The notes under the pieces were generated by a model. The model worked only from the letters and a program-made list of their open reading frames with translations. It searched no databases and was not told where the DNA came from. The position numbers and the translations under genes were made by a program. From the NCBI GenBank assembly GCA_035650735.1, contig DASRGZ010000040.1, positions 46,507 through 66,506 of the forward strand: 20,000 nucleotides of DNA. Reading direction: 5' to 3'. This document shows positions 1 to 19,396 of this stretch, one piece after another (position 1 is the stretch's first letter; every line of letters begins with the position of its first letter). Source of the stretch: Chthonomonadaceae bacterium. GTDB taxonomy: Bacteria > Armatimonadota > Chthonomonadetes > Chthonomonadales > Chthonomonadaceae.

Positions 1-128
1 AAGTCGCTGGTATCGGGACGCTTCACATCCGGCTTGTTCGGGCCGCCATCATCGCCGCCTTTGCGCAGCGGATCGGTCGGCAAGGTCGGCATCTGGCGTC
101 GCTCTTCGCCACGGAATATCCTCGTCAT
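1..128 (-). CDS. ubact: UBact-type prokaryotic ubiquitin-like protein (Pup analogue), 3' end truncated by the window edge
   Basis: Not in the ORF track. Manual translation from ATG at 128 gives MTRIFRGEERRQMPTLPTDPLRKGGDDGGPNKPDVKRPDTSD(L)..., with RBS AAGGAG at 144-139. It is small, disordered and Pro/Gly/Asp-rich, and its ERR..P..P and DDGGP..P...RPDT..L pattern matches UBact proteins as I recall them. It lies directly downstream of dop, the position Pup/UBact occupies. The diagnostic C-terminal G-E/Q is outside the window. Confidence 0.85.
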   Translation of the reverse strand, partial: MTRIFRGEERRQMPTLPTDPLRKGGDDGGPNKPDVKRPDTSD

Positions 129-138
129 GGGTGGTTAT

Positions 139-144
139 CTCCTT
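139..144 (-). promoter_or_regulatory. Shine-Dalgarno AAGGAG for the UBact gene
   Basis: Minus strand reads AAGGAGATAACCACCC-ATG(128), a 10-nt spacer. Confidence 0.75.
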
Positions 145-241
145 GTCTTAGCGCTCAGTCGCGCGGATGCAAGTGCAGTGCTCTACGAAATCAGCTTGGA
201 TCATCTATACGCAAGATTGCCATCCGTTCGTGCTATATCGG

Positions 242-1747
242 CTAGACCACTTCGTCAGAATGGCGAATCACGGCAACGAAATCCTCCAGGGTTTCGGCGG
301 CGGCGAGTTCCTCGTTCAAAACGCTGACGTTCTCCTCGACGAGCGGGTTCATATCGAAGAGCAGGTCTTCGCCGTTGTGCTGAAAGGCGATCCCGTTCCA
401 GCCGATACTGCGCACCGCCTGGCCGAACCGCTCCACGAACAGCCCCCGGATGAAGGCGCGGGTATCGGCGGGCGGACAGGACATGGCCGCCTGAATGCGC
501 GCATCCGTCACCAGACGCCGCATCTCTCCCGCCTGTTCCAGCCCATAGTAGAGCCCCTGTTCGGGATCAATGTTATGATAGGCCAGGTCAAGGCTCTGCA
601 TGTAGGGATCGTTCCAGCTCAGGCCCTCTTCGGCGCGGAAGGCATCCAGCAGCTTGAACTTGGCGACCCAGTCTAGCCGGTCGGCCAGGCTGAGCGGATC
701 GGTCTCCAGCGCCTCCAGCGTAGAGGCCCATTCCGCCAGCGTCCAGTCCGTCTCTTCGTCCCTGCCGCACAGGCGTTTTTCCGCCTCCTGTAGATAGAGA
801 CGTTGGATCTCCAGCGCGGTGACGGGGCTTCCACCCTGCCGCTCCACCCTCTGTTTCAGCGTGATGTCCCGGGAAACCTGCTTGACGGCGCGCACCGGGT
901 CCAGCAATTTGATGGGCGACGACCACCCTTCTTCCAGCAGCGATAGCACCAGGCTGGTCGTGCCGACTTTGAGGGCGGTAGCGTACTCGCTCATGTTGGC
1001 ATCGCCGCAGATGACGTGCAGACGGCGATAGTGGCGCGGCGTGGCGTGGGGCTCATCCCGTGTGTTGACCAGCGGGCGGTTATGCAGCGTGTCCACGCTG
1101 GCCTCGACCGAGAAGAAGTCGGCGCGCTGGGAAAGCTGAAAGACAGGAACGGCGCTGTCGTTTTCGACGTCCGACTTGCCCGCCCCGGCGTAGATCTGGC
1201 GCGTGGCGAAGAAGGGCAGCAGCGCCTGAATGAGGACGTCCGTGGGCACATCGCGGCGCACCAGGTAGCCTTCGTGCGTGCCGTAGCTGGCGCCGTGAAA
1301 ATCGGTGTTGTTTTTGTAGATGGTGACGGCCTGGCCGCGCTGCTGGGCCCGGCGCTGGGCCGCCGCGAAGACGATACGCTCTCCGGCTTTGTCGTGGGCA
1401 ACCAGGTCGCGTAGGCTGCGGCATTCCGGCGTGGCGTATTCGGGATGGCCGTGATCGTTATAGAGCCTGGCCCCGTTCGCCAGAACCCGGTCGCTGCGCT
1501 CCTCCTCGCGACTCATGGGAGGCGTGCCGGGCGCATCGAACTGCGCATCATCGGGGTTGGTGGAGAGATGCTCCACCGTGAACCCGCGCATGTCACGCCG
1601 AGGATCTTCGCCCCGGTAGTTCCAGCCGCTGACCGCCGGCCCGGCATGGCTGCGGACGACCGCGATGCTCTCGTTAATCCAGTCGCCGGCGCTCAGCCCC
1701 TCAACCACGATGCCATATTCCGTCTCGATCCCGAATAGCCTGTGCAT
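242..1747 (-). CDS. dop: Dop-family deamidase/depupylase (PafA/Dop carboxylate-amine ligase fold), 501 aa
   Basis: Motifs GIETEYG, NGARLYNDHGHPEYATPEC, KNNTD..GASYGTHEGY, NTRDEPHA, YRRLHVICGDANMSE, LDWVAK and DLAYH. The Dop-specific loop WNYRGEDPRRDMRGF (cf. WDY..ESPLRDARGF) and the position between arc and the modifier gene favour Dop over PafA. Confidence 0.9.
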   Translation of the reverse strand: MHRLFGIETEYGIVVEGLSAGDWINESIAVVRSHAGPAVSGWNYRGEDPRRDMRGFTVEHLSTNPDDAQFDAPGTPPMSREEERSDRVLANGARLYNDHGHPEYATPECRSLRDLVAHDKAGERIVFAAAQRRAQQRGQAVTIYKNNTDFHGASYGTHEGYLVRRDVPTDVLIQALLPFFATRQIYAGAGKSDVENDSAVPVFQLSQRADFFSVEASVDTLHNRPLVNTRDEPHATPRHYRRLHVICGDANMSEYATALKVGTTSLVLSLLEEGWSSPIKLLDPVRAVKQVSRDITLKQRVERQGGSPVTALEIQRLYLQEAEKRLCGRDEETDWTLAEWASTLEALETDPLSLADRLDWVAKFKLLDAFRAEEGLSWNDPYMQSLDLAYHNIDPEQGLYYGLEQAGEMRRLVTDARIQAAMSCPPADTRAFIRGLFVERFGQAVRSIGWNGIAFQHNGEDLLFDMNPLVEENVSVLNEELAAAETLEDFVAVIRHSDEVV

Positions 1748-1774
1748 TGTCGCTGCTGCTCATCTCCTTATTTT

Positions 1775-1928
1775 TCAACAGGATGAACAGGATTTCTCAG
1801 GATTTGCAGGATTAAGACCAAAGACTAAAGCCTTCCCGTCCACTAAGTTAAGAGATATAGGAACTTGGTTGGGTAGGTAGGTTTTAGAAATCCTGTTTAA
1901 TCCTGCATAATCCTGTTCATCCTGTTGA
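1775..1928. repeat. 154-bp inverted-repeat element: perfect 20-bp terminal IR, each arm with four CAGGAT units (MITE/REP-like)
   Basis: 1775-1794 TCAACAGGATGAACAGGATT is the exact reverse complement of 1909-1928. CAGGAT at 1779, 1788, 1798, 1807; ATCCTG at 1890, 1900, 1910, 1919. The core is AT-rich relative to the flanking genes. Confidence 0.85.
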
Positions 1929-1933
1929 GGTCT

Positions 1934-3760
1934 TTAAATGATATTGCGGCGGGTGGCGTTTAGCTGCTTCTTGGCGCGAATAGGCTTGATGGTCGCCACG
2001 TTCTCCGGGTCGTAATCGAGCAGCTTCAGCCAATCTTCCTGCGAGTCGCCCTTCGGGAAGATCTCGTTCTCCTTGAACTCGACCCGGACCGCCTTTTGGA
2101 GATCGTCCAGCGAGATGCCTTCGTGCTCCGACTGCTTGAGAATGCTGCGCTTGATGGCAAAGTCCTTTGCACGCTCGGTCACCGACTTGATCAGGGCGCC
2201 GCTGATGAGGTCCTTCCAGTAGAGCGTCTCGGTGCTGCCGTTGCGCAGGAAGACCTCCAGGAACTCGGTTTCCTCGTCGCGTCGGAACGTGAACTCGGTT
2301 ATCAGATCGAGCAGCTCATCCATCGCGGCGGTACAGTCACCCTTATGCTCCCGGATCAGGTCCGGGTCAATCGGCACGTCGCTCAGATAGATTTTATAGA
2401 TGTCGCGCGAGGCGCGGCGGTCGGGCCGTCCGACCTTCACCTTGCGGTCAATGCGCTCCGGGCGCAGGATGGCTGGGTCAATGTAATCGGGCCGATTGGA
2501 GGTCAGCATCACGACCACGTTCTCTAGGTTGACCAGGCCGTCCATCTCCGCGCAGAACTGCGGCACAAGGGTATTAGAGATATTCAGCCAGCGCCCAGAC
2601 GAGCGCGTGCGCAGGAGCGACTCGGCCTCATCAATGAAGATAAAGACCAGATGCCCTTCCTTTGACTTCTCCCGCGCCTGCGTGAAGATTTCGCGCACCA
2701 TGCGCTCGCTCTCGCCCAGCCACATATTGAGGATTTTCGGGCCGTTGATGTACATGAAGTACTCTTTAACGTCCCGCCCGGTCTGGCTCCGGTATTCTTG
2801 CGTGAGGTTGTAGGCGGTCGCCTTGCCGATGAGAGTCTTGCCGCAGCCGGGAGGGCCGAACAGCAGGATGCCTTTGAGCGGGCGCTTGCCAAACCGTTCA
2901 AAGAGCTCGGGATAGAGCAGCGGCAGCTCAATGGCGTCCTTGATGACGCTGATGGCCTCCTCCTGCCCGCCGATCTTGCTCCAGGGCAGAACAGGAACCT
3001 CTTCCAGGTAGTAGTCGCGGGTCTCTTTCTCCGCGAAGTACTCCAGGGCCACCTTGAAATTGGGCTCCATGCGCACTTCCGCGCCGGTCTTGAGCGGCAA
3101 GTCCAGAAGAGGCTCGCCCCGGTAGACCACGCGCGACTGCATCCCCTGCGCGTCCATCGCCACGCGCAGCCGCCCATCTTCCAGTACCTCGCTTATCTTA
3201 ACGATGGGGCCGCCCTGCGCGAAGCCCAGGTCGCCGATGACCGCGAACGCCTCGTTCACCTTGACCTGCGTGCCGATCTTGAAATCGGGGTTCTCCAGCT
3301 TGGGGTCCACGTTGGCGATGTATTCCTGGTCGCCCAGGGCAATGCGCACGACCAGGCCGGGCTTTTCTTCGGATTCCGGCTCGGCGGGCTGACCGAGGCG
3401 GCGGCGCGGCTTGGGCTTTTCCTCGGTGGGCTCCAACATCCCCAGGAAGACGCCAATGCGGTTGGCGGGCGAGGTCAGCTTATTATAGGCCTCCTCAAAC
3501 TCGGCGATGACTTTCTTGGCCTCTTCCATCATGGCCTCATCGGCCTGGACCTGCTCGCGCAAGGCCATCAGGTAGCTGAGGCGCACGTCGTTGCGCGGGG
3601 TCATGCGGATGATCTCATCCAGCAGCCAGAGGGCGCGCAGCTGCATGTCGGAGGAGGAAGCGGCCTGGTTATCGTCACCGAAGGCGCTGTCGTTATAATC
3701 GTCGCGGTTGCCGCCGAAGTCCATGTCGTCGCGGCGGTCACGGTCACGGTCTCGTCGCAT
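1934..3760 (-). CDS. arc: Proteasome-associated AAA+ ATPase (ARC/Mpa family), about 608 aa
   Basis: N-terminal coiled coil ending KLTSPANRIG, two OB-like segments, Walker A GPPGCGKT, pore loop KILNMWLGESER, Walker B IFIDEAES, SRH SNRPDYIDPAILRPERID, ARC-typical FLEVFLRNG.TETLY..DL.SGALIK. Start moved from 3814 to ATG 3760 because AAGGAGAGG (3772-3764) lies immediately upstream. Confidence 0.92.
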   Translation of the reverse strand: MRRDRDRDRRDDMDFGGNRDDYNDSAFGDDNQAASSSDMQLRALWLLDEIIRMTPRNDVRLSYLMALREQVQADEAMMEEAKKVIAEFEEAYNKLTSPANRIGVFLGMLEPTEEKPKPRRRLGQPAEPESEEKPGLVVRIALGDQEYIANVDPKLENPDFKIGTQVKVNEAFAVIGDLGFAQGGPIVKISEVLEDGRLRVAMDAQGMQSRVVYRGEPLLDLPLKTGAEVRMEPNFKVALEYFAEKETRDYYLEEVPVLPWSKIGGQEEAISVIKDAIELPLLYPELFERFGKRPLKGILLFGPPGCGKTLIGKATAYNLTQEYRSQTGRDVKEYFMYINGPKILNMWLGESERMVREIFTQAREKSKEGHLVFIFIDEAESLLRTRSSGRWLNISNTLVPQFCAEMDGLVNLENVVVMLTSNRPDYIDPAILRPERIDRKVKVGRPDRRASRDIYKIYLSDVPIDPDLIREHKGDCTAAMDELLDLITEFTFRRDEETEFLEVFLRNGSTETLYWKDLISGALIKSVTERAKDFAIKRSILKQSEHEGISLDDLQKAVRVEFKENEIFPKGDSQEDWLKLLDYDPENVATIKPIRAKKQLNATRRNII

Positions 3761-3845
3761 TCGCCTCTCCTTGTTATGTCCGGGAGCCCGAGGACTTCCT
3801 GTAGACAAAGACATACTGGGCGCGCTTCGATGCGCACCCGGTCTC

Positions 3846-3874
3846 AGTATACCAAACTTTACGCGTGTTGGGAA
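3846..3874 (-). promoter_or_regulatory. Putative sigma70-type promoter for the arc-dop-ubact unit
   Basis: Minus strand TTCCCA (3874-3869), 17-nt spacer, TATACT (3851-3846), with an extended -10 TG (TGgTATACT). Confidence 0.55.
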
Positions 3875-3985: not shown

Positions 3986-4100
3986 CAGGCTGGCAGAAAG
4001 AGCGGGCCTCAGACTGGCAGAAAGAATGGGTACGAGTAGGCTGCCCAGGCCAGCATAGGCGCAGCAATTGGGCTAGGATGTGCCCAGACTGGAAGCAAGA
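3986..4100 (+). repeat. Three imperfect 16-bp direct repeats in the leader of the HEAT gene
   Basis: CAGGCTGGCAGAAAGA 3986-4001, CAGACTGGCAGAAAGA 4010-4025, CAGACTGGAAGCAAGA 4085-4100. Confidence 0.55.
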
Positions 4101-4108
4101 ACCGGCTG

Positions 4109-5092
4109 ATGACGCGGCTGAGGCAGCAACAGGAACCGAAAAGCGTGAATCGCAAAACGGCTCAACTTATCCAAAATCTGACGACAGGCGATGTCGTCGC
4201 GCGCCGCGAGGCGGCAACCAAGTTGGGCAAGCGTGGCGGCCGGGAAGCCGTCGAAGCGCTCTGCCAGGCGCTACAGGATGGTAGCTGGCATGTACGCCGG
4301 AATGCAGCCCAAGCGCTGGGTCGGCTGGGAGATACCGCCGTTCTTGAGCCGCTCTGTCAGGCGCTGCAAGATAAGAGCCAGGGCGTCCGGCGCGCGGCGG
4401 CGACGGCGCTGGGCGCGCTGCAAGATGCCCGCGCGGTCGAACCGCTTCTCTCTGCTCTACGGGATAAGAAGGCGCTCGTTCGCAACAGCGCCTGTGAAGC
4501 CCTTATCCGGATCGGCTTGCCCGCCGTGGCCCCACTTTGCCAGGCGCTCGCGGAAGATCGGGAGCCTGTTCGCAAACATGCGCGCACGGCCTTACAGCAG
4601 ATATTGGAGCAGAATCATAAGCAGACGCTCTCCGCCCTGCTGGGAGACGCCCGACTGACGCCCCAGCAGCGCTGGATCGGGCTGGATGCGCTCTGTGGCT
4701 ATCGCGGCGGACGGTTTCTCGGCCCTTACTTTGCCGACACGCGCCGCTTCTGCGAGCGTGTCGCACGATCAGAGGATTTTGCGGAGCCTGCCCGCACTGG
4801 CGCGCACGAAGTTCTCAATTACCTGACGCTGGCCCGCCCCAGCCAGCGCGACCTGTCGGCGGAAAAGGATTCCCTGCTGCGCGCCGCGCACGGTACGGAA
4901 GCGACGGGCGGCGCGGATATTCTCCTGCGGGCCTCCAATTCAGAGCCTGAGGAACTTACAGAGGAGCGCGCGTTGCGGAGCGGCGCGTTGACAGTGTTTG
5001 CCTACCCAATCACGAAATCGGCGCACACCTTGCGCCGATTTGTGCTCCTCTGCCTGGATAGATTCCGAAATCTCTTTAAGCCGGACGACTAA
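4109..5092 (+). CDS. HEAT-repeat (PBS-lyase/HEAT_2-like) protein, 327 aa
   Basis: About five ~31-aa repeats of type AVE.LCQALQD....VRR.AA.ALG.LGD. An in-frame stop at 4037-4039 limits upstream extension; GTG at 4145 is an alternative start. Confidence 0.85.
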   Translation: MTRLRQQQEPKSVNRKTAQLIQNLTTGDVVARREAATKLGKRGGREAVEALCQALQDGSWHVRRNAAQALGRLGDTAVLEPLCQALQDKSQGVRRAAATALGALQDARAVEPLLSALRDKKALVRNSACEALIRIGLPAVAPLCQALAEDREPVRKHARTALQQILEQNHKQTLSALLGDARLTPQQRWIGLDALCGYRGGRFLGPYFADTRRFCERVARSEDFAEPARTGAHEVLNYLTLARPSQRDLSAEKDSLLRAAHGTEATGGADILLRASNSEPEELTEERALRSGALTVFAYPITKSAHTLRRFVLLCLDRFRNLFKPDD

Positions 5093-5185: not shown

Positions 5186-6931
5186 ATGACGAAGCCACCG
5201 AACCCTCTCACCGAACGCGGCCTGAATAACCTGGTCGCCTTTACCCGGCTGCTCGGCTACGTCCGCCATTTCCATCCGAGCGACGAGGCGGCAGCCATCA
5301 CGGACGGCTGGCACCGGTTTGCGGTCGAAGGCGTACAGAGCGTGGAAGGCGCGACAGACTCCTGTGACCTGGCGCATAGGCTGTCAGCCCACTTCCGCAC
5401 GGTTGCGCCCACGCTGCGCGTCTTTCTGACGGGACAGCGCCTGCCGCTACCCGTTGAGTTGTTCCCGCCTGCGAACCGGCAGGGCCTGGGTGTCATGATG
5501 TGGCGGCATGAGGGCTACGGCGCTCCGCGCTTTGCCCGTCCCTACCGCAGCGTGCGCGTCCGTAAGTCCACGCCGCAGGGATGCATTCCCAAACGGCTGC
5601 CCGATCCCCGCCAGCCCTATCGCGCCGACCTGGGTGGGGGCGTTTCCTGCTGCGTTCCCCTCGCGCTCTGGACGGACGCCAGAGGCACGCTGCCGCATCG
5701 GGCGCAGCAGAAACGGGCCTCTACTTCCGAACCGAGGGAGTATTTGGGTGACGACCGGGCGGTTCGCCTTGCGGCGGTGGCGCTGGCCTGGAACGTATGG
5801 CAGCACTTCTATCCCTATTTCGATGTGGTCAAGACCGACTGGCGCGGCGTCCTGCGGGAGACCCTGTGCGCCGCCGCGACCGACTACGACGCGACCGAGT
5901 TCCTGAGCACGCTGCGGCGCATGAATGCGCAGTTGCAGGATGGGCATGGGTACGTCCAGAGGCACGCCGATTGGCGGCGCTATGCGCCCCCGTTTCACAT
6001 GGACTGGATCGAGGAGCGGCTGGTGATAACCTCAGTCACGCCGGAAGGCGCGGGCGGGCTGAGACCGGGGGATGTGGTTCTCCGCGTGGATGGTCAGCCT
6101 GCCACAGGGGCGTTGGAGTCGCAGGAACGTCTGGTTTCGGCGGCGACGCCGGGCCGCAGGCGCTTCCGCGCCATCCAGGAACTGCTGGCGGACACCGACG
6201 AATCCGAAATGGTCCTGGAGATAGCGACGGCCACGGGGCAGCCGCAGGCGGTAACGGTGCGCCGCTCTGTCCTTTGTCCCTCTTACTGGGACCTGGGCTT
6301 TCTGCAGAGAGAATCGCGCCCGCCCAAGATAGTCGAGATGCAGCCGGGCCTCTGGTACGTGGACTTTTGCCGGACGGAGGACAGCGAGTTTTACGCCGTG
6401 CTCTCGCATCTGGCGCAGGCGCGGGGCGTCCTCTTCGATGTGCGCGGCTATCCGAGCGCCATTTCGTACCATACCCTCGCACACCTGATTGACGCGCCGA
6501 TCACCTCGCCGAAGCACTGTCTTCCGACGCGGCTGTACCCGGATCGGCAGCGCGTTGAGTGGGACGTTCGCCAATGGGATCCTATCTTCCCGGTCGCCCC
6601 ACGGATCGCAGGCAAGATCGCCTTTTTGACCGATGAGCGGGCCGTCAGTTGGGCCGAGACCTATCTAGCGTTCGTCGAGCATTATCATCTGGGCGAGATC
6701 GTCGGCGCGCCTACGGCAGGAACAAATGGGGCGCTCAACGAAATCGAAGAGATCATCGGGGGCTATCGTCTCTACTGGACGTGCTATCGCGTTCTCAAAC
6801 ACGACGGCTCACCGCATCATGGCATAGGCCTCCTGCCCACGATCCCTGTTACGCGCACCCTTCGCGGCGTCGCAGCAGGACGGGATGAGGTAATGGAACG
6901 TGCACTGGAAGTTGTCTCTGCCCGGCCCTAA
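5186..6931 (+). CDS. Peptidase family S41 protein with PDZ-like domain, 581 aa
   Basis: WNVWQHFYPYFD, L.DGHG, PDZ-like GLRPGDVVLRVDG, VLFDVRGYP, catalytic-Ser segment FLTDERAVSWAE, GEIVGAPTAGTNG, and GIGLLPTIPV. Confidence 0.85.
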   Translation: MTKPPNPLTERGLNNLVAFTRLLGYVRHFHPSDEAAAITDGWHRFAVEGVQSVEGATDSCDLAHRLSAHFRTVAPTLRVFLTGQRLPLPVELFPPANRQGLGVMMWRHEGYGAPRFARPYRSVRVRKSTPQGCIPKRLPDPRQPYRADLGGGVSCCVPLALWTDARGTLPHRAQQKRASTSEPREYLGDDRAVRLAAVALAWNVWQHFYPYFDVVKTDWRGVLRETLCAAATDYDATEFLSTLRRMNAQLQDGHGYVQRHADWRRYAPPFHMDWIEERLVITSVTPEGAGGLRPGDVVLRVDGQPATGALESQERLVSAATPGRRRFRAIQELLADTDESEMVLEIATATGQPQAVTVRRSVLCPSYWDLGFLQRESRPPKIVEMQPGLWYVDFCRTEDSEFYAVLSHLAQARGVLFDVRGYPSAISYHTLAHLIDAPITSPKHCLPTRLYPDRQRVEWDVRQWDPIFPVAPRIAGKIAFLTDERAVSWAETYLAFVEHYHLGEIVGAPTAGTNGALNEIEEIIGGYRLYWTCYRVLKHDGSPHHGIGLLPTIPVTRTLRGVAAGRDEVMERALEVVSARP

Positions 6932-7078: not shown

Positions 7079-10042
7079 TTACCGGCCTGGCGATGGCGGC
7101 GGGCTGCCGCTCTTCGAAGAACTGGGCGCTTCGGATTTCTCCGGCCCTGGCTGCTTCTGGTCGGTCTCCGCGGGCTTGAGGTTGCGCTTTGGATCCAGGT
7201 TGGGCTGCTGCTTGGGCAGGTCGGGCAACTGCTTGATGATGCTGGCCCCCTGCTTGCGGGTCATCTCGCGCGCCTCCGCGGCGCTATTAATGACATGGGG
7301 CGTGATAAAGATCATCAGCTCCGTTTTGTTGCGCACCTTCTGGCGGGAGCGGAAGAACTGGCCGATCAACGGTATCTCCGACAGGATCGGGATTTTGGTG
7401 ACGTTGAGCGAGTCGCTGTCGCGAATCAGGCCGCCGATGACGATGGTGTCGCCATCCTGGACCGTGACCGCCGTATCGGTGTAGCGGTCATCAACCACCG
7501 GGGCGCGGATCGCGCTGACGCCCGTGCCCAGAATGTCGAAGCGGAGCAGATCGCTGGCCTCCTGCTGCACCTCAATCGTCACCAGGCCCTCTCGGGTGAT
7601 GCGGGGAATGACGTTGAGGATGATGCCGACGTTCAGGAAGTCAAGTTCGTTGCTGACCGTCGTATTGATGAAGCCGTTGGCATTCTGGCCCTGCACGTAG
7701 GGAATATTGGTCGTGATGTCAATTTCGGCTTCCTGGTTATTGCCGGTAAAGATGCGCGGCGTGGAGAGGACTTTAACCTTGCTATCCGAGGTGAGCGCCT
7801 GGATCAGCGCGTCATAGTTGGCGCCATGCAGGACGAACTGCCCGCCGGTCGCCAGCGGATCGAAGGTCGGGCTGAATCCCTGCGCCGGCAGATTGATAGC
7901 TCCCTGGGCGTTATTGTTGCCGCTGAAGAGCCGGAAGAACTTGCCGCTCAGCGCCAGCCCGGTTCTCTGGTCCGAATCCAGGGTCACTTCGGCGATAATG
8001 GCCTCGATCATGACCTGGCGCGGCACCACGTCCAGCGCCTCGATGATCTCTTTGACGGCCTGATAGTTGTCCGGGGTTGTGGTGACGATGAGGCTGTCGC
8101 CGCCGGGAGACGCGGTGACGAAGACGTTGTTCTGTAACTGCAACAGGTTGGAGTAGGTGCCGGTGCGTCCCCGTCCATACTGCGGCCCGCCGCCCTGCCC
8201 GATGCCGCGCCGCCGCCCGAAGCCGTAATCGTAGTATTGGCGCGTGCGCTCCTTCTCCTGGCCATCGCGCGGATCGTCCCCCTCGCTATCGGGCGGAGAG
8301 ACATCTCCGGGCGGCACTCCTCCGGACGCCTGGGCTGCGCTCGGGGGCGGCGCGGCCCTCCCATCGGGTCGCGTCGCGGATCGGAAGGGATTGTTGTTGT
8401 TCTGGCTGCCCAGACGCCGCTGGATGCGCTGGCGGCGGCCTCCCCGGTTCCCCTGGCCGCCACCTCCAAAGAAGAAGAAGCCACCGAAGGGATTGAAGTT
8501 ATTTTGCGCCGTGTTGAACGCCTGGCTTAGCGCATAGGCCACGTCGTCGGCCTGGGCGTTCTTGAGCGGAATGACGAAGGTGGTCGGTTCCACCGGCACA
8601 TCCACGTCCAACTGGTCAATCAACTGCTCGATTTCGGGCATCCGCTCTGCCGAGGCCGTGAGCAGCAGAGTGTTGGTGCGCGGGTCGGCGACGACCTTGC
8701 CGAAGGGATCGGCACTGGTTACCGTCTGCGTCTGGGGCTGCTCCCCGCCGAAGCCGCCGAAGGCGCGCGCCTGAAACGAGGCGCCGGCCGGGTTCGGATT
8801 GGCCGACCCACCGACATGCATATTGGTCAGCACGCTATTGATGAGGTTGGCCACGGTCACGGCATCGGCATACTTAATCTTGCGGGTTTTGGTCTGGAGC
8901 GTGTTGGCCTCGTCGCCATCGAGCGCCTGGATGATCTTGCGGGAGATCTCGTCCTGGTTATCCGGCGAGGCGACGACGATGACGGAGTTGGTGCGGGCAT
9001 CCGCTACGGCCACCACGGCAGGCCGTCCGCTGCCCATCGGCGCGGGCTGGCCCGGCTGCGGCGGAGGGGGCTGGGGCTGGCCGGGCTGCGGCGGGGCGCC
9101 ACGGCCGCGCGTGGTGGTCTGCTTGTAGATGTTGGTGATGATGTCGGCGACGACGGTGGCCTCGGCGTGTCGGAGCGGATAGATGCGCATCTCCGTCCGG
9201 TTGGAGGTTTTGTCCAGGGCATCCACCAGCTTGATAAAACGCTGGACGTTGCTGGCCGTGTCGGTGACGATCAGGGCGTTGGAGCCGGCGCTGCCGATTA
9301 GGCTGGCACCCTTGTTGATGAGCGGCATCAGCTCTTTGGACAGCGCCTCAGCGTCCACGTTCTCCAGGGGGATCACCTGGGTCATCACCTGATCGCGCGC
9401 ATCAATCGTGCCCGGCTTGACATCCGGATTGACCAACGGCGTACTGCCCACAGCCCGGTCCAGCGGCACGATACGCAGCACCATCCCGTCCTGAATGGCG
9501 GTAAAGCCGCGCACGAATAGCACCGACTGCAAAATCTTGAACGCCTCGTCCAGCGTCACCTGCTTGGGATTGATGATGGTGACCTGGCCGGTCAGGGCCG
9601 GATCTTTGGTGACCGTCAGGTTGGAGACGCGCGCATAGAACTGCAAGACGTTGTCAATATCGGAGCCATGAAAGTCAAAGGAGAAGATCGCGCCCGCCGC
9701 CATCGGGGCGACGCCGCCTCCGCCGGCGGGGTTCGGCGCGGCGGCGACCGGCTGCGCGCCGGCAGGCATGGGCGGCAGCGCCGGTTTTCCACCGGGCGGC
9801 GCGGCCTGCTGCCGGGACATGGGCACGACGCGCAGTGTCGGCCCATTCCGCTTTTTGGATGTTTTCTTGCCTTTGCTCTGCGCGGCGCGCGTCCCCTTGC
9901 GCGGCGCGCGCGACGGCTGTGCCTCCTGCGCGGCCGTGCCCGTAAGCGGAAGGATCAGGCTGGCCGTCAAGGCAGCAAGCCCGGCCCTGGTCCAGAAGTC
10001 CCGTCTCCAGGACGGCGCGGCATATTTGAATCGTTTCCCCAT
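7079..10042 (-). CDS. gspD: Type II secretion system secretin GspD, about 987 aa
   Basis: Signal peptide, N0 domain (FSFDFHGSDIDNVLQF), repeated N-domains (IPL...A..DARTNS), secretin core QVMIEAIIAEV, KVLSTPRI, GIILNVIPRI, VQDGDTIVIGGLI, KIPILSEIPLIGQFFRS, TELMIFITPHVI. Start placed at ATG 10042 (AGGAAGGA upstream) rather than 10072. Confidence 0.93.
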   Translation of the reverse strand: MGKRFKYAAPSWRRDFWTRAGLAALTASLILPLTGTAAQEAQPSRAPRKGTRAAQSKGKKTSKKRNGPTLRVVPMSRQQAAPPGGKPALPPMPAGAQPVAAAPNPAGGGGVAPMAAGAIFSFDFHGSDIDNVLQFYARVSNLTVTKDPALTGQVTIINPKQVTLDEAFKILQSVLFVRGFTAIQDGMVLRIVPLDRAVGSTPLVNPDVKPGTIDARDQVMTQVIPLENVDAEALSKELMPLINKGASLIGSAGSNALIVTDTASNVQRFIKLVDALDKTSNRTEMRIYPLRHAEATVVADIITNIYKQTTTRGRGAPPQPGQPQPPPPQPGQPAPMGSGRPAVVAVADARTNSVIVVASPDNQDEISRKIIQALDGDEANTLQTKTRKIKYADAVTVANLINSVLTNMHVGGSANPNPAGASFQARAFGGFGGEQPQTQTVTSADPFGKVVADPRTNTLLLTASAERMPEIEQLIDQLDVDVPVEPTTFVIPLKNAQADDVAYALSQAFNTAQNNFNPFGGFFFFGGGGQGNRGGRRQRIQRRLGSQNNNNPFRSATRPDGRAAPPPSAAQASGGVPPGDVSPPDSEGDDPRDGQEKERTRQYYDYGFGRRRGIGQGGGPQYGRGRTGTYSNLLQLQNNVFVTASPGGDSLIVTTTPDNYQAVKEIIEALDVVPRQVMIEAIIAEVTLDSDQRTGLALSGKFFRLFSGNNNAQGAINLPAQGFSPTFDPLATGGQFVLHGANYDALIQALTSDSKVKVLSTPRIFTGNNQEAEIDITTNIPYVQGQNANGFINTTVSNELDFLNVGIILNVIPRITREGLVTIEVQQEASDLLRFDILGTGVSAIRAPVVDDRYTDTAVTVQDGDTIVIGGLIRDSDSLNVTKIPILSEIPLIGQFFRSRQKVRNKTELMIFITPHVINSAAEAREMTRKQGASIIKQLPDLPKQQPNLDPKRNLKPAETDQKQPGPEKSEAPSSSKSGSPPPSPGR

Positions 10043-10082
10043 GCTTTCCTTCCTATTTCCCCTAAGGCCCACACCCCTCGTG

Positions 10083-10922
10083 CTAACGGTTAAAAGTCCT
10101 ATCCAGGATGCGCTCCCGGCGCTGGGCCTGTCTGGCGTTGAGCACGCGGCCGTTGGAGAGCGTTACCGGTCCATTGGGTGCCGGCGCATTGGCGGGTGGA
10201 GGACCCCCTGGCGGGGGCGGCGTTCCGGGCTGGCCTCCGGGTTGTCCTCCCGGCTGCCCCGGCTGGCCGGGCTGGCCGCCGCTATTCAGAAAGTCCGCGC
10301 TCTTATCCAGGGGCGTGACGGTAATCCGGTCGGATTTGGCCAGACGGGTCGTGTTGCCGCCGGCCATCAGAGTCACCTCCTGATCGGTGATGTTGGACAC
10401 CTGCGCGCCGAGGAAGCTCTCGCCGACCTGAACGTAGTGGCCCTCTTTGGTCTTGGGGTTCTCCAGCAGCGCCATCAGGGTATCGCCGATATGGACCGTT
10501 CCCGTATAGGCCCAGTCCGCGAACGGATTGATCGGCGCGACGGGAACCATAGGGGCGGGCGGCGGAGGCGGCGGGGCCGGGCGCTTCCTGATGTGAACCG
10601 GCTTCGGTTTGGGCGGCGGAGGCGGCTGCGGCGCGCTGAACAGGCTGCTGCGTACCTCGCCGGTATAGAAGGAGAGAGGCCGCCGGGAGGGCGGCGCGGG
10701 GGAAGGCTCTACAGTTAGCCCGGCGCTGCTTTCCGCGTTCTGCGCCGTGGCGCCCTTGTTGGCTGGGGCCGCGGACGCCGGGCGGTTCTGCGCGCCGTTG
10801 GGCCGTGCCACGCCGACCAGGATGAGCGCCGTGACGCCAACGACCAGCGCCGCGCCTCCTACCGGGAAGGTTTTGCCTGGGCGCAGTGCCCTCTGCGCTT
10901 TAATCCACTGTATTTGCAGCAC
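10083..10922 (-). CDS. GspC/PilP-like T2SS inner-membrane protein, about 279 aa
   Basis: One TM segment, Pro-rich linker, then an HR-like beta domain (WAYTGTV..ALLEN..GHYVQVGESFLGAQVSNITDQEVTL). Located between gspM and gspD. Start placed at GTG 10922 (AAGGAGG 8 nt upstream) rather than 10997. Confidence 0.7.
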   Translation of the reverse strand: MLQIQWIKAQRALRPGKTFPVGGAALVVGVTALILVGVARPNGAQNRPASAAPANKGATAQNAESSAGLTVEPSPAPPSRRPLSFYTGEVRSSLFSAPQPPPPPKPKPVHIRKRPAPPPPPPAPMVPVAPINPFADWAYTGTVHIGDTLMALLENPKTKEGHYVQVGESFLGAQVSNITDQEVTLMAGGNTTRLAKSDRITVTPLDKSADFLNSGGQPGQPGQPGGQPGGQPGTPPPPGGPPPANAPAPNGPVTLSNGRVLNARQAQRRERILDRTFNR

Positions 10923-11493
10923 TCTTCTGCCCTCCTTCTGCGCCGGCAGCCGCTCCTGCGGTCCAGGTTGTGAACGCCGCGATCTCGGCGGAGACATCCA
11001 CCGTCTTCAATTTCTGATCCGTCGAGGTCAGGGCGAGCTTGTCCACGGTCATCTTGCCGGCCGGGTCTTCGACAAAGTAGAGGAACTTCATGACGTTGGG
11101 CTGGAACGGCGCGGTAAAGCGCACCTCCAGCGGCACCTGGGTGCCGGAGGCTGTCGCAAGATCATGCGGGCGCAGGGGCTTGATCTCGCGCAGGTGAACG
11201 CCCGCCCGGTCGGCCAGGCGGTTCAGGTCGCGGATAAGACGCGGCACCAGCGAATCCGGCGGCAGGTCGTAGGCCTGGCGCGCGATTCGAGGCTCCAGGG
11301 CAGCCTGGTCGTCGCTTAGCTGCGCGATCTGGCGCAGCGCGGCCCGATACGCCTGCTCGGCCCGGGCGGGCGGCAACAGCGCGCTCTGCCCGGCGGGCGT
11401 CGGGGGCGGATGGAGCTGCAGCCAGACCGCCGCGCCCACCACCACCGAACACAAAACGATCAAGACCTGCTCTCGCTTATGGAGACGGCGCAT
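10900..11493 (-). CDS. gspM: GspM/PilO-like T2SS protein, 197 aa
   Basis: N-terminal L.KREQVL followed by a TM segment, coiled coil, and a ferredoxin-like C-terminus (LNRLADRAGVHLREIKP...VMKFLYFVE...VDKLAL). Follows gspL. Confidence 0.8.
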   Translation of the reverse strand: MRRLHKREQVLIVLCSVVVGAAVWLQLHPPPTPAGQSALLPPARAEQAYRAALRQIAQLSDDQAALEPRIARQAYDLPPDSLVPRLIRDLNRLADRAGVHLREIKPLRPHDLATASGTQVPLEVRFTAPFQPNVMKFLYFVEDPAGKMTVDKLALTSTDQKLKTVDVSAEIAAFTTWTAGAAAGAEGGQKSAANTVD

Positions 11494-13495
11494 GGTTTGC
11501 TCCCGGAACGGCTGCTGTGCGCTTGCCCGTCTGCGCCAGCGCGCTCTCTGTCGGTTTTTCGCCTGTGGGCGCGGGCGCTCCGGTCAGGAGGCTGGGCGCG
11601 CCGGGGTTGAGGCGGCAGGTGATAACAAAGCTGGTCAGGGGAGGCCGCGCCGGGACCGTTCCCTTCTTGGGCGCCGGAGCGGACTTCTTGACGTGCGGCG
11701 CCGGAGGCTTGCCACCTAGCGTGGGGCCGCGCGTTTCTGGCGCCGAATGCCCTCTGGCCTGAAGAGCCGGGCCTCCGGGTGCCGGACCTGGCGACCCCGG
11801 CCCTGCCGGAGCGGCGTTGGGCAGCGTTCCCGGCGGCGGGCTGGCAGGCGCCGCATTGGGAGGTGGGCTGCCGGGCACAGGCGTCCCCGCAGGCGTTCCC
11901 GCGGGCGTCCCCGGATGGATGCCGGGCGGCGCGGGAGCGCCAGGCATGCCGGGCAGCGTCGTTGTAGCCGCGGAGGCAGGCGACCCCGTCGCGCTCTCAC
12001 CGGGCGCTTTCGTCGTCGGACGGCTGGCTGGCGTTTTCTCTTCCTGCGCGTCGCCCAGATATCCGATCCGTACCTCCGAGAAGGCGCCGGACTGCTGGAG
12101 GCGAATCACGAGGTCGGTGGCTGCCAGGGCGGAGCGGGTGTTGCCGCGCAGGGTGAGCAGCCCGCCGCGATCAAACTCAAACTGCGTCAGCCAGATGTCG
12201 GTGGATTTGGGCAGCGCCATGTTGACCGCCGCCAGCACATCCACCGTCGGGTGGTTGCGATCCAGGGCGGAGGCCAGCGCCGCCTCCTGCGCCTGCAAGC
12301 GGTTGTAGGATCTCTGTCGCGCGTCCAGCCGCGCCTGGACATCGCTCAGCTTCGCGTTGGCCGTCTGTGTTCTTTCCTTAAGCTCTCTCTGCGCCGCCAG
12401 GGAGCGCGAGAACATAATGCCAAAGACGGCAAGCAGCCCTACAGCCGCGAGGCCCACGGCAATCCGCGCTTTGCGCCGCCGCTCCAGCGCCCGGCGCTCG
12501 GCACGCTCGTCCGGCACCAGGTTGATCGGCGCCAGGCCGACCCCGGCGCCCTGCAGGGCCATGCCGATGGCCGTGGCGTAGGCCGGCGCATCAGGATCGC
12601 CGGGCGGCAGGAGGCGACTCTGGAACCGCGCCACCGGCATCTCCAGCATCTCGCTCAGGGCGCGCTGCAGGGCCTCCGCCTCCGGCCCTACCGCGCTCAC
12701 GCCGCTCAGATAGACATGCACCAGCGGGTGGTGCCGGAACTCGTTCTGGTAGGCGGTGAAAGAGCGCACGACCTCTTCGGCCATGCGCACGCGCACGGAC
12801 TCCGCATCTCTGCCGGCCAGCGCAAACGCGGCGGCGCGGGTGAACAGCAGCCGCCCATTCGCCACGACGACGGCATCCATCTCGCCGGGCTTGAGGTCAA
12901 TGAGCGCGGTCGGCTCCAGGGCATCGCGGATATTTTCCGCCAGTGCCAGGGCCGAGACCGATAGGCGGCACAGTTCCAGCCCGGCCCGGTCGAAGATGGC
13001 CAGGACTTCCGTGATCAGCGTGCGCCGCGCCGCCGCGATCAGCACCGTCTCCAGGTTATCGCCTTCGGCCGCGGCCAGGCCCGCCGCCGGCTCGGCCAGG
13101 ACGTGATAATCCAGCACAACCTCATCGCGGGGAAAGGGAATGTACTGCTGGGCCTCAAAATCCACCATGCCCCGCATCTGCTCGGGGGTTCCGGCGGGCA
13201 ACTGCGCGAATCGCAGCGTCACCAGGCGGCGCGGCAGGCAGGCCACGACCGTCTTGCTCGCGATTCCGGCGCCGGAGAGCGCGACGCGCAGGGCCTCAGC
13301 AAAGGCATCATGGTGGGCGGCGAGATTACTCCAGGCGTGGGGCGGCAGGGGCGCCGTCCCGCGCCGCAGGACGCGCATGCCTTCCTTTCCCCCTAAGCCT
13401 TCCAGTTCGACCACGCGCACGGCAGCCGCGCCCAGGTCTATGGCGGTGGTATGTGCCGTCGTGCCCGCGCGGCGCGCGGGCGGTCTTAGCCCCAA
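11477..13495 (-). CDS. gspL: GspL-like protein (PilM actin-like domain fused to TM and PilN domain), 672 aa
   Basis: AIDLGAAAVRVVEL, FEAQQYIPF..DEVVLDY, INLVP motif before the TM segment, PilN-like ALPKSTDIWLTQFEFD..LTLRG..LQQSGAFSEV. TTG start with AGGAGG at 13506-13501. Confidence 0.82.
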   Translation of the reverse strand: MGLRPPARRAGTTAHTTAIDLGAAAVRVVELEGLGGKEGMRVLRRGTAPLPPHAWSNLAAHHDAFAEALRVALSGAGIASKTVVACLPRRLVTLRFAQLPAGTPEQMRGMVDFEAQQYIPFPRDEVVLDYHVLAEPAAGLAAAEGDNLETVLIAAARRTLITEVLAIFDRAGLELCRLSVSALALAENIRDALEPTALIDLKPGEMDAVVVANGRLLFTRAAAFALAGRDAESVRVRMAEEVVRSFTAYQNEFRHHPLVHVYLSGVSAVGPEAEALQRALSEMLEMPVARFQSRLLPPGDPDAPAYATAIGMALQGAGVGLAPINLVPDERAERRALERRRKARIAVGLAAVGLLAVFGIMFSRSLAAQRELKERTQTANAKLSDVQARLDARQRSYNRLQAQEAALASALDRNHPTVDVLAAVNMALPKSTDIWLTQFEFDRGGLLTLRGNTRSALAATDLVIRLQQSGAFSEVRIGYLGDAQEEKTPASRPTTKAPGESATGSPASAATTTLPGMPGAPAPPGIHPGTPAGTPAGTPVPGSPPPNAAPASPPPGTLPNAAPAGPGSPGPAPGGPALQARGHSAPETRGPTLGGKPPAPHVKKSAPAPKKGTVPARPPLTSFVITCRLNPGAPSLLTGAPAPTGEKPTESALAQTGKRTAAVPGANHAPSP

Positions 13496-13507
13496 ACTGT
13501 CCTCCTG

Positions 13508-15670
13508 TTATGGCCCCGTATCATCGCTATCGGGGGCCGCTTCGGTGCTGCCGCCCGAGGTCGGAGTCGGTAGCTGCGGTGGGGAGGTCCAGGATGACCA
13601 TCCCGGATAGCGCGGGACTTCCCGCCATTGCAGCACGCGCGGCCCGTTCTCCGTCAGCTCCGCCAGCGCCGAGACCGCATATACGCCTGGCTGACCCGGC
13701 ACGCGCACCTTGATATGCACCCTATAGACGGAAGATTTCGTGCAGAGATGCCCGATCACGGCTTCATACTGCTCGCGCGTGATGTTTTGCAACTGAAAGA
13801 GATCGCCCAGCGACTGAAACGCCTGCCCGCCCTGTCGGTAGCTCAGGATGGCGTCCAGCAGCGCGCGGTCCATGCCCGGCACCGTCGCCAGCACTTCGGG
13901 CGGGGCGGTGTTGATGTTGACGACGTTTTCCCGGTAGGTTGTGTCCTCGGTGGTGATGCGGTCGGCGATATCGGCCATCACCGTCCGGGTAAAGCCCCGT
14001 ACCTCCAGCAGGTCGGCGATGGTGCGGAACGCCTGGCTCTGCCCACCGCCGCTACTGCTGCTGCCCGGGCTATTGCCGCCGGGAGCGCCGCCGTTCCCGC
14101 CGGGGGTATTGCCGCCCGATCCCGGCCCACCGCTGCCCGCATTGTTGCCCGCCGGCGGGCTATTTCCGCCAGAATTGGGACCGCCGCCCAATCCTAGCTG
14201 CCGGGTGACGCCCCGGCGCGGTCGGCCCAGCAAGCCCCCGGACTCCATCTGTAGCCCCGGCCTGTTGCCGTTCCCGCCCAATCCCGGCCTACCGTTGCCC
14301 GGGACGTTACCAGGCGGCGGGCCGCTGGGCGCTCCATTGCCCTGGCTGGGAGGCGGCCCTCCACCGGGCTGGGGTTGGCCTCCGAAGCCGCCCGTACCGC
14401 CGTTGCGGTAGTCTATCAGGCGGCGGGCCAGCTGCGCGGGTAGCCCGAGCTTCTGCTGAAGATCCTGGGCGCTGGCGGTATTGATGTTGACGCGCGGCGA
14501 GCCGTCGGAGGCGACGTTGCGCTCGCGGGCGTAGGTCGTCAGCAACTCGGCCAGCGGGAACGTGCTGTTGGCGAAGATGTCGTCAAAATCGCTGTTTCCG
14601 CCCGACGGCGGCGGATTGTTAGGGTTCGGCGGGCCGTTCCCCGGCGGATTGGGCGGGGAGCCGGGTAGGCCGGGCTGATGAGGGCCGTTCGGCTGTGGGG
14701 CCTGCCGCGTGGTTCCATCCTCATAACCGCCCGGCATCGCGCCCCCGTTCGCCTGCGCCGCCTGGCCCGGCGCTGCCGATGTCGGGTTGCCGGAGGGAGC
14801 GTTATAGAGCAGCGCGGGCGTCATGCCCCGCACAAGCAGCAGTTCCTCCACCGTATCGAACGGCGCCCCTTTGGCGCTGTAGGGCGTGGGCAGCGATTGA
14901 TAGTAATCCGACGCGCCGCCGCTGGCGGAGGATTGATCACTCGAATGGCGCCAATCCAGGATGGCGGTTATCAGGTCCTCCTGGTCACTCAGGGTCGGCA
15001 GACGCCTGAGCGTCGCCTCGTCCGCCGTATTCAGGTTGATCAGCCCGGCGGTATCTACGGCCTCGATCTTGACCCAGGCATCCCCGACCGGCATCCAGCC
15101 GTTGGCGTCGGTATCCGCCACCGGGGGGATGACACCGTAGGTGGCGCCGTTGTTGCTGGTCTGCGCCAGGGCGCTCAGGGCGTAGTTGAGCGCGCCGCGC
15201 GCGGCATAGAAGCGCTCTACCTGCGCGCTCTCGCGGGCCGCCGCCCGTACCTCGCGCCGCGCCGAGGTCGCAAAAGTCACGGCCACCGCAGTCAAAATCA
15301 GCACGACGAAGACCACTGGCACGAGCGCCTGCCCTCGCCGTATCCCACCAGTGGCCCTGTTGTCACCATACTGCCGTGAAAACAGGCCCCCATCCCGTCC
15401 TGCGGCCACCCACTGCCAGGGTCGGCGCTCAACGGACTGCCAGGGGCGGGCCTGCAATGGACTGCCAGGGTCGGCAGGGTTACGGCCCCTGCCTCCGCCT
15501 TGCGACACCTTGCGACACGGCTCTGCCTTGCGACAGCCCGCCGCCTGGCTATCCCCAAGGACAGGGGAGGGGAGAGACCTCACCCCCGGCCCCTCTCCTT
15601 TAGAAGGAGAGGGGAGAGGCGTTCTCATGCGAGTGGATGAATACCTGTTTATGGAGCCTCTTGCGTGCAT
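13508..15670 (-). CDS. gspK: Minor pseudopilin GspK with HhH-like repeats; start uncertain
   Basis: Prepilin site RRG|QALVPVVFVVLIL without Glu5 (typical of GspK), A.YAARGA, D.AGLINLN, AILDWR, DYYQSLPTPY.AKGAPFDTVEELLLVRGMT, VNINTA repeats. The first ~110 codons overlap DNA repeats, so the start is doubtful. Confidence 0.85.
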   Translation of the reverse strand: MHARGSINRYSSTRMRTPLPSPSKGEGPGVRSLPSPVLGDSQAAGCRKAEPCRKVSQGGGRGRNPADPGSPLQARPWQSVERRPWQWVAAGRDGGLFSRQYGDNRATGGIRRGQALVPVVFVVLILTAVAVTFATSARREVRAAARESAQVERFYAARGALNYALSALAQTSNNGATYGVIPPVADTDANGWMPVGDAWVKIEAVDTAGLINLNTADEATLRRLPTLSDQEDLITAILDWRHSSDQSSASGGASDYYQSLPTPYSAKGAPFDTVEELLLVRGMTPALLYNAPSGNPTSAAPGQAAQANGGAMPGGYEDGTTRQAPQPNGPHQPGLPGSPPNPPGNGPPNPNNPPPSGGNSDFDDIFANSTFPLAELLTTYARERNVASDGSPRVNINTASAQDLQQKLGLPAQLARRLIDYRNGGTGGFGGQPQPGGGPPPSQGNGAPSGPPPGNVPGNGRPGLGGNGNRPGLQMESGGLLGRPRRGVTRQLGLGGGPNSGGNSPPAGNNAGSGGPGSGGNTPGGNGGAPGGNSPGSSSSGGGQSQAFRTIADLLEVRGFTRTVMADIADRITTEDTTYRENVVNINTAPPEVLATVPGMDRALLDAILSYRQGGQAFQSLGDLFQLQNITREQYEAVIGHLCTKSSVYRVHIKVRVPGQPGVYAVSALAELTENGPRVLQWREVPRYPGWSSWTSPPQLPTPTSGGSTEAAPDSDDTGP
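15412..15535. repeat. Two short repeat families in the gspK 5' region
   Basis: ACTGCCAGGG at 15412, 15436, 15461; CCTTGCGACA at 15498, 15508, 15526; hairpin GGCAGGG...CCCTGCC at 15473-15493. Confidence 0.7.
15549..15616. repeat. REP-like palindromic element CCTCACCCCCGGCCCCTCTCC...GGAGAGGGG, one full and one degenerate copy
   Basis: Perfect 11-bp stem CCCCTCTCCTT-TAG-AAGGAGAGGGG at 15590-15614, preceded by CCTCACCCCCGG. Degenerate copy TCCCC-AAGGACA-GGGGAGGGG at about 15549-15572. Confidence 0.7.
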
Positions 15671-15678
15671 CGTCTTGT

Positions 15679-16554
15679 TTAGCCGCCGGGAGGGGCCGTC
15701 GTGTTGGGATTGGCCGGTGCGCCGGTATTGGCGGCTGGTGCCGTGATGTGCGGCATGGGCTGCGGCGCGGCAATCGGTATCAGGGTTGTATAGGTTGCGG
15801 GCGTGCCGTCCGTCCGGCGCAGCGCCAGCGACACCTCCACCGCGCCGGGCAGGGCGCTGTCGCCCGTGCCGCTGTCAGCCTGCCCTGTCCCGCCGGAGGG
15901 CGCGGTGCCGTTCGCATCCTCCTGTCCGCTCGGTGCGCTGCCCTGCGTTGTCGGCTGGCCTGCCGCCTGATTCGGCTGTTCAAAATCCCAGTCGCTGCGC
16001 CAGGCGCGGGCGTTGGCATCCCAGAAGCGCAGGTTCAGCGCCAGCACCCGCCGCGATAGGATATTGGTCGGAGAGGGAGTCGCTTGCATCACAACCTGCG
16101 GATTGGGCACAGCGTTCTCCACGCGCAGCAGCGTGCCCGTGTTGGCATCCAGGTCGTAGCGTACCAGCGCGCAATCGGATTGCGGCAGCGCCGCCGATTC
16201 GTCCTGCGCGCCGCCTGCCGGATTCGCCTCGGCCTCAATGCGGTGCGAAAGTGTCGTTAGCAGGAGCAGGCTGCCTCCGGCGGCGCGCGGCCCCTGCCCT
16301 CCGCCCGCGATAAACACGGAGTCCGGGTCGTTCAGGGAGCCGTAAGCGGCGGTCAGGTCGCGGCTCAGCGTGGCAAAGAGGGCGCTCGCTTCCTCCTGAT
16401 CCTCCTGGCGCTGCGTGGAGGCAGTATGCGCCCGCAGGGCCACCGAGAGCGCCAGGCCGGTGGCAAAGCTGATAACGCCGAAGATGACCAGCGCGACGAT
16501 CACCTCCAGCAGAGTAAAGCCAGGCCGCTCTTTCCCCCTCCGGCGTATCCTCAT
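15679..16554 (-). CDS. gspJ: Minor pseudopilin GspJ, 291 aa
   Basis: G|FTLLEVIVAL, L.RDL, VRY.L....LLR, L.LRFWD....WRSDW, LPGAVEVSL. ATGA overlap with the gspI stop. Confidence 0.88.
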   Translation of the reverse strand: MRIRRRGKERPGFTLLEVIVALVIFGVISFATGLALSVALRAHTASTQRQEDQEEASALFATLSRDLTAAYGSLNDPDSVFIAGGGQGPRAAGGSLLLLTTLSHRIEAEANPAGGAQDESAALPQSDCALVRYDLDANTGTLLRVENAVPNPQVVMQATPSPTNILSRRVLALNLRFWDANARAWRSDWDFEQPNQAAGQPTTQGSAPSGQEDANGTAPSGGTGQADSGTGDSALPGAVEVSLALRRTDGTPATYTTLIPIAAPQPMPHITAPAANTGAPANPNTTAPPGG

Positions 16555-16934
16555 GGTTGCTGCTCCTGTGGCTTACGCAGGAACGTGGTGTAGACGCGCT
16601 CGTAGGGATGGCCCACCGGCCCCCAGCGGAGGGTGAGCGTCACCTTGAACAGGTCGGGATATCCGGTAGTCTCCACGCTTTGCCGCCAGAGGTAGCCGGG
16701 ATACTCCGCGCCGAAGTTGCCCTGCTGCTCCCCGCCAACCAGCGCCTCCGGCTGCAACTCCACCTCGGTCAGCCTGCGCCGGGCCAGGAGCGCCGCCGTC
16801 TGGATCTGCTCGGCCATGCCGGAGGCGCGCGTTGCCGTGGAAATAGCGGTTAGCGCGCCGACCACCCCGATAGCCAGCAGCAGCGTGGCGACGATCATCT
16901 CGATGAGCGTGAAACCGCGCTTTGATCTCCTCAT
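16551..16934 (-). CDS. gspI: Minor pseudopilin GspI, 127 aa
   Basis: G|FTLIEMIVATLLLAIG, A..LARRRL.E, Y.WRQSV, LFKVTLTLRW. ATGA overlap with the gspH stop. Confidence 0.85.
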   Translation of the reverse strand: MRRSKRGFTLIEMIVATLLLAIGVVGALTAISTATRASGMAEQIQTAALLARRRLTEVELQPEALVGGEQQGNFGAEYPGYLWRQSVETTGYPDLFKVTLTLRWGPVGHPYERVYTTFLRKPQEQQP

Positions 16935-17479: not shown

Positions 17480-17488
17480 GGCAGGGGC

Positions 17489-17926: not shown

Positions 17927-17997
17927 CTTGCCTTCTCCTTACAATAGAGATAACAGTTCCATTCTGCCCGTACCAGAGACTTACCTAACCTCCCGTC

Positions 17998-18019
17998 GCG
18001 GCAGGCTGAACCCTGCCGC
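17998..18019. other. GC-rich stem-loop in the gspF-gspG intergenic region
   Basis: GCGGCAGG-CTGAAC-CCTGCCGC, an 8-bp perfect stem with no U-tract. Confidence 0.45.
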
Positions 18020-18070
18020 TTGCCAACCGCCCGTCGTCGAGAAAAGCCGGGTCTCCCCTCTCCCGCAGGT

Positions 18071-19390: not shown

Positions 19391-19396
19391 GTTCCT

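Follow-up and report, generated by a model that had tools for sequence, protein, structure and literature searches.

A UBact–proteasome gene cluster of Armatimonadota encoding an ARC ATPase with a tyrosine-free aliphatic tail

Can a bacterial proteasome be served by an ATPase that has no tyrosine in its C-terminal tail? This question is raised by a locus at the left end of a 20,000-nucleotide stretch from a Chthonomonadaceae bacterium (contig DASRGZ010000040.1, positions 46507-66506), hereafter called the window. A preliminary description had recognized here the genes for the ATPase ARC and for Dop, together with a small open reading frame (ORF), and had read them as part of a system that conjugates the modifier UBact to proteins destined for degradation. 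All three genes lie on the minus strand, in line with the co-orientation noted there, and the cluster runs on leftward past the window edge with the strand unchanged. Extension of the contig in this direction revealed prcB, prcA and a PafA-like gene, as predicted, which gives the order arc-dop-ubact-prcB-prcA-pafA with all six reading frames intact. Four findings had been named in advance as speaking against UBact, and the locus offered the opposite of each: the small ORF does not continue into a long folded protein, it ends after 64 amino acids (aa) in RSGQ, it matches UBact models, and the genome encodes a PafA-like ligase. We consider it very probable that this is a complete UBact–proteasome cluster of Armatimonadota which works in a pupylation-like manner, with ARC probably docking to the core particle by a tyrosine-free aliphatic tail. 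The locus is real, and the system was already known; it has been described for the phylum and is routinely annotated. UBact with its enzymes and a proteasome was reportedly described in Gram-negative bacteria by Lehmann et al. in 2017. Proteasomes and Dop/PafA homologues of Armatimonadetes are also noted in sections of PMC5666114 and PMC7947786. Added here are the aliphatic dipeptide at the end of ARC, the matching replacements in the PrcA pocket, and a lysine at the Arg193 position of the ligase.

The modifier gene ubact (minus strand, contig 46440-46634) has only its first 42 codons inside the window (1-128). Its ATG at 128 is preceded by AAGGAG 10 nt upstream, which bears out the strong ribosome-binding site of the preliminary description. 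The same description had counted the gene as missed by the ORF list. This holds in so far as 42 codons lie in the window, but the omission is a window-edge effect: an identical protein is already in a public collection with PF20513, and close homologues carry the NCBI name “ubiquitin-like protein UBact”. On the contig, the gene ends in RYRQRSGQ-stop, and R-[ST]-G-[EQ] is said to be the C-terminal UBact motif of the 2017 study. Both UBact models were passed, NF033388 with 81.7 bits (cut-off 35) and PF20513 with 81.8 (cut-off 27.8), and UBact is the only protein of the cluster above its curated NCBIfam cut-off. Over the last 30 codons, comparison with 48 relatives revealed 571 synonymous and 153 non-synonymous codon differences, and 607 of the 901 base differences fell on third positions; ubact is thus a real gene under purifying selection. 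The terminus is RSGQ or RSGE in 49/49 loci (GQ in 26, GE in 23), mixed among the closest loci, which is what one would predict if Dop renders a terminal Gln equivalent to Glu. The charge over the last 43 residues ranges from +3 to +7 in these loci, compared with −11 for Pup of Nonomuraea. UBact had no match to the Pup family (PF05639) at E<=0.01, nor was there any PF05639 match in the genome, while a Corynebacterium control gave one. The view that UBact and Pup are non-homologous agrees with this result; it is nevertheless not settled, as verrucomicrobial small proteins ending in G[EQ], which may or may not be UBact, are counted as Pup orthologues in a part of PMC2588565.

For comparison across genomes, the best 80 of 162 ARC relatives were used, which together with the present locus make 81 loci. 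Almost all of these relatives are labelled Armatimonadota or Abditibacteriota, and the nearest is from Chthonomonadaceae (90%). The six-gene order is identical in all 41 loci that hold all six genes. Of the 301 genomes sampled from the phylum, 170 carry UBact and 171 PrcB, with family tallies that match except for one genome; these co-occurrence counts include kin and are hence non-independent. The present genome (97.6% complete) contains one UBact gene and exactly two genes of the Pup-ligase family (PF03136), and tblastn detected no second copy of ARC or of the proteasome in it. Repeat insertions in two cluster spacers and deviations from mycobacterial essential motifs could be taken as signs of a decaying remnant, a reading that is barely credible and already largely refuted by conservation: the six frames are intact, ubact is under purifying selection, and UBact occurs in 22/22 other genomes of the family within the sample. 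Some observations do count against a complete cluster of the known kind. In 40/81 loci, not all six genes are in view, owing to short contigs or an arc gene located elsewhere, and four long loci (L008, L044, L059, and L079) carry arc without dop-ubact-prc within 9 kb flanks. Furthermore, ARC, Dop, PafA, PrcA, and PrcB all score below the cut-offs of the actinobacterial models (TIGR03686-03691). As a separate observation, the lone arc genes, which come from Abditibacteriaceae, Armatimonas, and Fimbriimonadales loci, still encode a [VI]-I tail. Eight genomes (G012, G026, G102, G185, G211, G217, G233, and G293), six of them in one family, had two UBact matches and one PrcB.

The arc gene (1934-3760, minus strand) encodes a proteasomal AAA+ unfoldase of the ARC/Mpa family with 608 aa, Walker A and B motifs, and the C-terminus RRNII. 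The ATG that gives this length has a Shine-Dalgarno-like AAGGAG, and the mechanically called ORF begins at 3814. The product matches PF00004 and both proteasomal OB domains, and reaches 429.7 bits with TIGR03689 (cut-off 504.75). ARC aligns to Mpa up to Mpa residue 597 and ends four residues further on, whereas Mpa (609 aa) runs for twelve more residues to GQYL, a C-terminal motif of the HbYX type according to an excerpt of PMC9599533. Complete tails were available for 79 of the 81 loci, two being cut. The last residue is Ile in 78/79 and the penultimate one Val or Ile in 79/79, so that all end in [VI]-[IV]. A metagenome scan for more distant ARCs, of which the best 80 of 540 were kept, yielded 77 complete tails and 30 loci with UBact. 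Here, the terminal residue is Ile or Val in 75/77, and the penultimate position holds Val (30), Ile (18), Ala (11), Thr (11), or others (7). Neither GQYL/HbYX nor a penultimate Tyr or Phe was found in any of the 79 Armatimonadota or 77 metagenomic tails. The aliphatic dipeptide sits behind a variable linker, and the last 12 residues of ARC are predicted to be disordered. In a quickly computed tree of 64 selected ARCs, 34 Tyr-free rows, including every UBact-linked row, formed one clade (SH-aLRT 99), and the other side comprised 23 Tyr-tailed and seven other rows; P0084 and P0126 represent two possible independent tail losses among the Tyr-clade ARCs. No UBact-linked locus with a Tyr-tailed ARC was obtained, and six ARC-like loci from a viral collection were without dop or prc neighbours. 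Five loci of this collection (L162, L163, L164, L166, and L167) encode ARC-like ATPases ending in GQYL or GMYL, with no dop or prc detected in the available flanks; possibly these are virus-borne proteasome activators, or host DNA. An exchange of charge, with a basic tag matched by an acidic coiled coil in ARC, was considered and dropped, because the Nonomuraea ARC is also at −3 despite its acidic Pup; the median coiled-coil charges are −4.5 (70/81 scored) and −3 (65/80), compared with 0 for Tyr-tailed ARCs (13/20).

A change of the activator tail leads to the pocket that would receive it. The prcA gene (contig 44466-45260, minus strand) encodes 264 aa whose fold is that of bacterial alpha subunits (216 aligned residues, Z 26.6, rmsd 2.1, offset +2). 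In the mycobacterial complex, as presented in portions of PMC9599533, the tail Tyr bonds with PrcA Arg26 or Glu119, the carboxylate with Lys52, and the backbone with Asp144/Ser146; the same portions give Arg26Ala and Lys52Ala as abolishing PafE-driven degradation. By sequence alignment, with a structural offset of +2, the equivalents of Arg26, Glu119, Lys52, Asp144, and Ser146 in the present PrcA are E24, V117, K48, D140, and E142, i.e., Lys52 and Asp144 are kept, Arg26 and Glu119 are gone, and Ser146 is not retained. The same applies to 46 Armatimonadota and 23 metagenomic PrcAs: position 24 is Arg in 0/69, and position 117 is aliphatic (V, A, I, L, or M) in 64/64 scored and Glu in none (5 gaps), while position 48 is Lys in 67/67 scored (2 gaps) and position 140 is Asp in 64/64 scored (5 gaps). 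PrcAs of M. tuberculosis, Rhodococcus, and Nonomuraea, used as controls, have Arg and Glu at these sites, and the Nonomuraea ARC ends in GQYL. As the partners of the Tyr side chain are replaced and Lys52 and Asp144 are invariant, tail and pocket together look like a re-keyed docking motif of single origin.

How would such a tail act? We propose that the ARC hexamer binds tagged proteins and unfolds them into the PrcA/PrcB core, docked to it by the aliphatic tail, which would sit in the re-keyed alpha pocket. Going by conservation, the carboxylate of the terminal [VI]-I would bind K48, Val in place of Glu119 would make the pocket hydrophobic, and no bond of a Tyr with Arg26 or Glu119 would be formed. 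Several observations argue against docking of this kind. The tail extends 29-35 residues past the last conserved Trp, compared with 36-47 in Tyr-tailed ARCs (14/20 measurable), and a longer tail is given as helping mycobacterial Mpa in the portion of the literature consulted. One Tyr-free clade means that tail and pocket changed once, without independent replicates, and the three control PrcAs are all from related Actinomycetota. In addition, Lys or Arg is found one position before the Arg26 site (position 23) in 45/46 and 20/23 PrcAs, and this basic residue might stand in for Arg26. It is possible, if doubtful, that tagging and degradation proceed in the same way and the gate is opened by something other than the ARC tail, such as beta-grasp/H0 coupling, a different activator, or a gate that leaks, with drift of the pocket once Tyr had been lost. 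Such a coupling fits the shortness and single origin of the tail as well as the looser penultimate residue of the 77 metagenomic tails, and contacts of the beta-grasp hairpin are described as a second Mpa interface in a part of PMC8755798. It fits poorly with a terminal Ile or Val in 79/79 and 75/77 tails behind a variable, predicted-disordered linker of tight length, and with the invariant Lys and Asp of the pocket. As for another activator, a GxYL-like C-terminus was found in only one of the 19,521 open frames of the genome, a frame of 182 codons whose contig has no ARC match; a search of the genome for Bpa gave no match, but neither did its controls. On balance, we lean slightly towards tail docking over tail-independent coupling.

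The remaining genes would provide the tagging enzymes and the proteolytic subunit. Modelled on the actinobacterial pathway as outlined in sections of PMC7947786, Dop would deamidate the terminal Gln of UBact to Glu and recycle conjugates, and the PafA-like enzyme would attach UBact-Glu to substrate lysines. The dop gene (242-1747, minus strand) encodes a putative deamidase and de-tagging enzyme of 501 aa, which is 4 bits short of the TIGR03688 cut-off (488.4 vs 492.3). Its residues 1-464 align with solved Dop at 395.6 bits compared with 246.4 for PafA, and it carries the Dop-type His/Pro near the catalytic Asp. The Dop loop is present, reflected by a motif spacing of 76-78 in 53 frames compared with 50 in 18 ligase frames. 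The pafA-like gene (contig 42783-44258, minus strand) encodes 491 aa without the full Dop loop, and the alignment places PafA-type residues at the VGSH, ATA, His174, and Ser180-Ser181 positions, taken as signatures from Table 1 in the seen part of PMC7947786.

Whether this second enzyme acts as a general ligase is less clear-cut. It scores higher on solved Dop chains (239 bits) than on PafA chains (205 bits), its position relative to actinobacterial PafA has a support of only 0.33 in a small FastTree, and Thr183, Thr184, and Arg193 of M. smegmatis PafA are replaced in it by Val, Arg, and Lys. Lys at the Arg193 position recurs in 40/40 Armatimonadota pattern matches, and the Arg193Ala variant of the M. 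smegmatis enzyme is reported as inactive in the section of the source consulted; all of these points tell against ligation by this protein. The alpha-loop motif NTRDEP is replaced by NPK[WR][DE] in the 40/40 Armatimonadota matches, compared with RDEP in 14/14 metagenomic UBact ligases, and an insertion of about 30 residues precedes the SQRAD motif. With these features and the better Dop scores, the protein could instead be a ligase of narrow specificity, a second hydrolase, or a transpeptidase, which would leave tagging limited. We regard this as improbable: the gene is retained in its operon position at 63-92% identity, the change from Arg to Lys preserves charge, the Dop loop is missing and the PafA-type signature positions are there, and it is the sole other PF03136 gene of the genome. 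By analogy to the actinobacterial enzyme, ligase activity of the Armatimonadota protein thus remains our preferred assignment.

The prcB gene (contig 45276-46109, minus strand) encodes 277 aa, with a propeptide followed by HG|T, and matches PF00227 with 91.5 (cut-off 22.4). Thr1, Asp17, and Lys33 are present, in a numbering that we take to be that of the active-site positions of 20S beta subunits. The autocatalytic site, with HG|T, D17, R19, and K33, is kept in 46/50 pattern matches; the other four look spurious.

Compared with the UBact system of Gram-negative bacteria, the locus is alike in tag models, RSGQ end, gene order, and phylum; we could identify no difference at the system level. Within the family, the Armatimonadota ligase stands apart by its lineage-specific alpha-loop (Lys at Arg193). 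With the actinomycetotal Pup-proteasome, it shares homologous enzymes, unfoldase, and core as well as a tag ending in G[EQ], and the dop-tag-prcB-prcA-pafA order is identical in the Nonomuraea Pup locus. It differs in a basic tag without PF05639 match, an ARC without GQYL, and a PrcA without Arg26/Glu119. ARC and the HbYX activators PAN, Rpt, Mpa, and Bpa/PafE have in common a free C-terminus, a last residue that is hydrophobic, and a lysine conserved in the alpha-ring pocket, whereas the penultimate Tyr is absent in 156/156 complete tails examined. A literature search, mostly of titles and abstracts, found neither a Tyr-free tail nor UBact biochemistry; the 2017 UBact paper was outside this search and may mention the tail. 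With this locus, a family present in more than half of the Armatimonadota sampled gains a further genome. It offers an intact six-gene kit for the reconstitution of UBact conjugation, and its tail-and-pocket pattern allows a specific and inexpensive test of the question whether gating of a 20S core by an ATPase requires the HbYX tyrosine. If docking is indeed Tyr-free, on which we are evenly divided, the whole clade would form a natural exception to the other ATPase activators, and UBact would be insulated from Pup systems in cells with both.

Regarding transcription, one promoter had been proposed ahead of the cluster. A sigma70-like candidate with an extended -10 lies at 3874-3846 (minus strand), which makes a single shared promoter plausible; the match is weak (9/12 consensus positions) and is one of four promoter-like sites, compared with 1.1 ± 0.9 in shuffles. 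Terminator-like matches were at chance level only. The arc-dop spacer holds a palindromic repeat of about 155 bp (1775-1928, strand unassigned) with 30-nt arms that are 90% complementary and a fold z of −9.45. It resembles REP/MITE elements and occurs at about 66 genomic places; as it recurs genome-wide, it was rejected as an element of the tagging system and lies outside it. A second, nested palindromic repeat in the ubact-prcB spacer (L001:14609-14923) abuts the prcB start and has about 308 related genomic places by blastn. In the relatives L003, L004, L005, L015, L043, L078, and L080, inserts of 1-2 kb are often found in the arc-dop, prcB-prcA, and prcA-pafA spacers.

On the other side of arc, a gene for a HEAT-repeat protein (4109-5092, plus strand) is oriented divergently, with three 21-nt direct repeats upstream of it (3986-4105) near a plus-strand promoter-like site. 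It is followed by an S41 peptidase gene (5186-6931, plus strand) whose product has a PDZ-like region. A type II secretion-like cluster lies at 7079-20000 (minus strand), comprising GspE, F, G, pseudopilins, K, PilM/N/O-like genes, and a GspD secretin. Armatimonadetes are termed Gram-negative in a part of PMC5666114, and the secretin, which the preliminary description had linked to an outer membrane, is well identified by its GspD score (449.2, cut-off 351.35).

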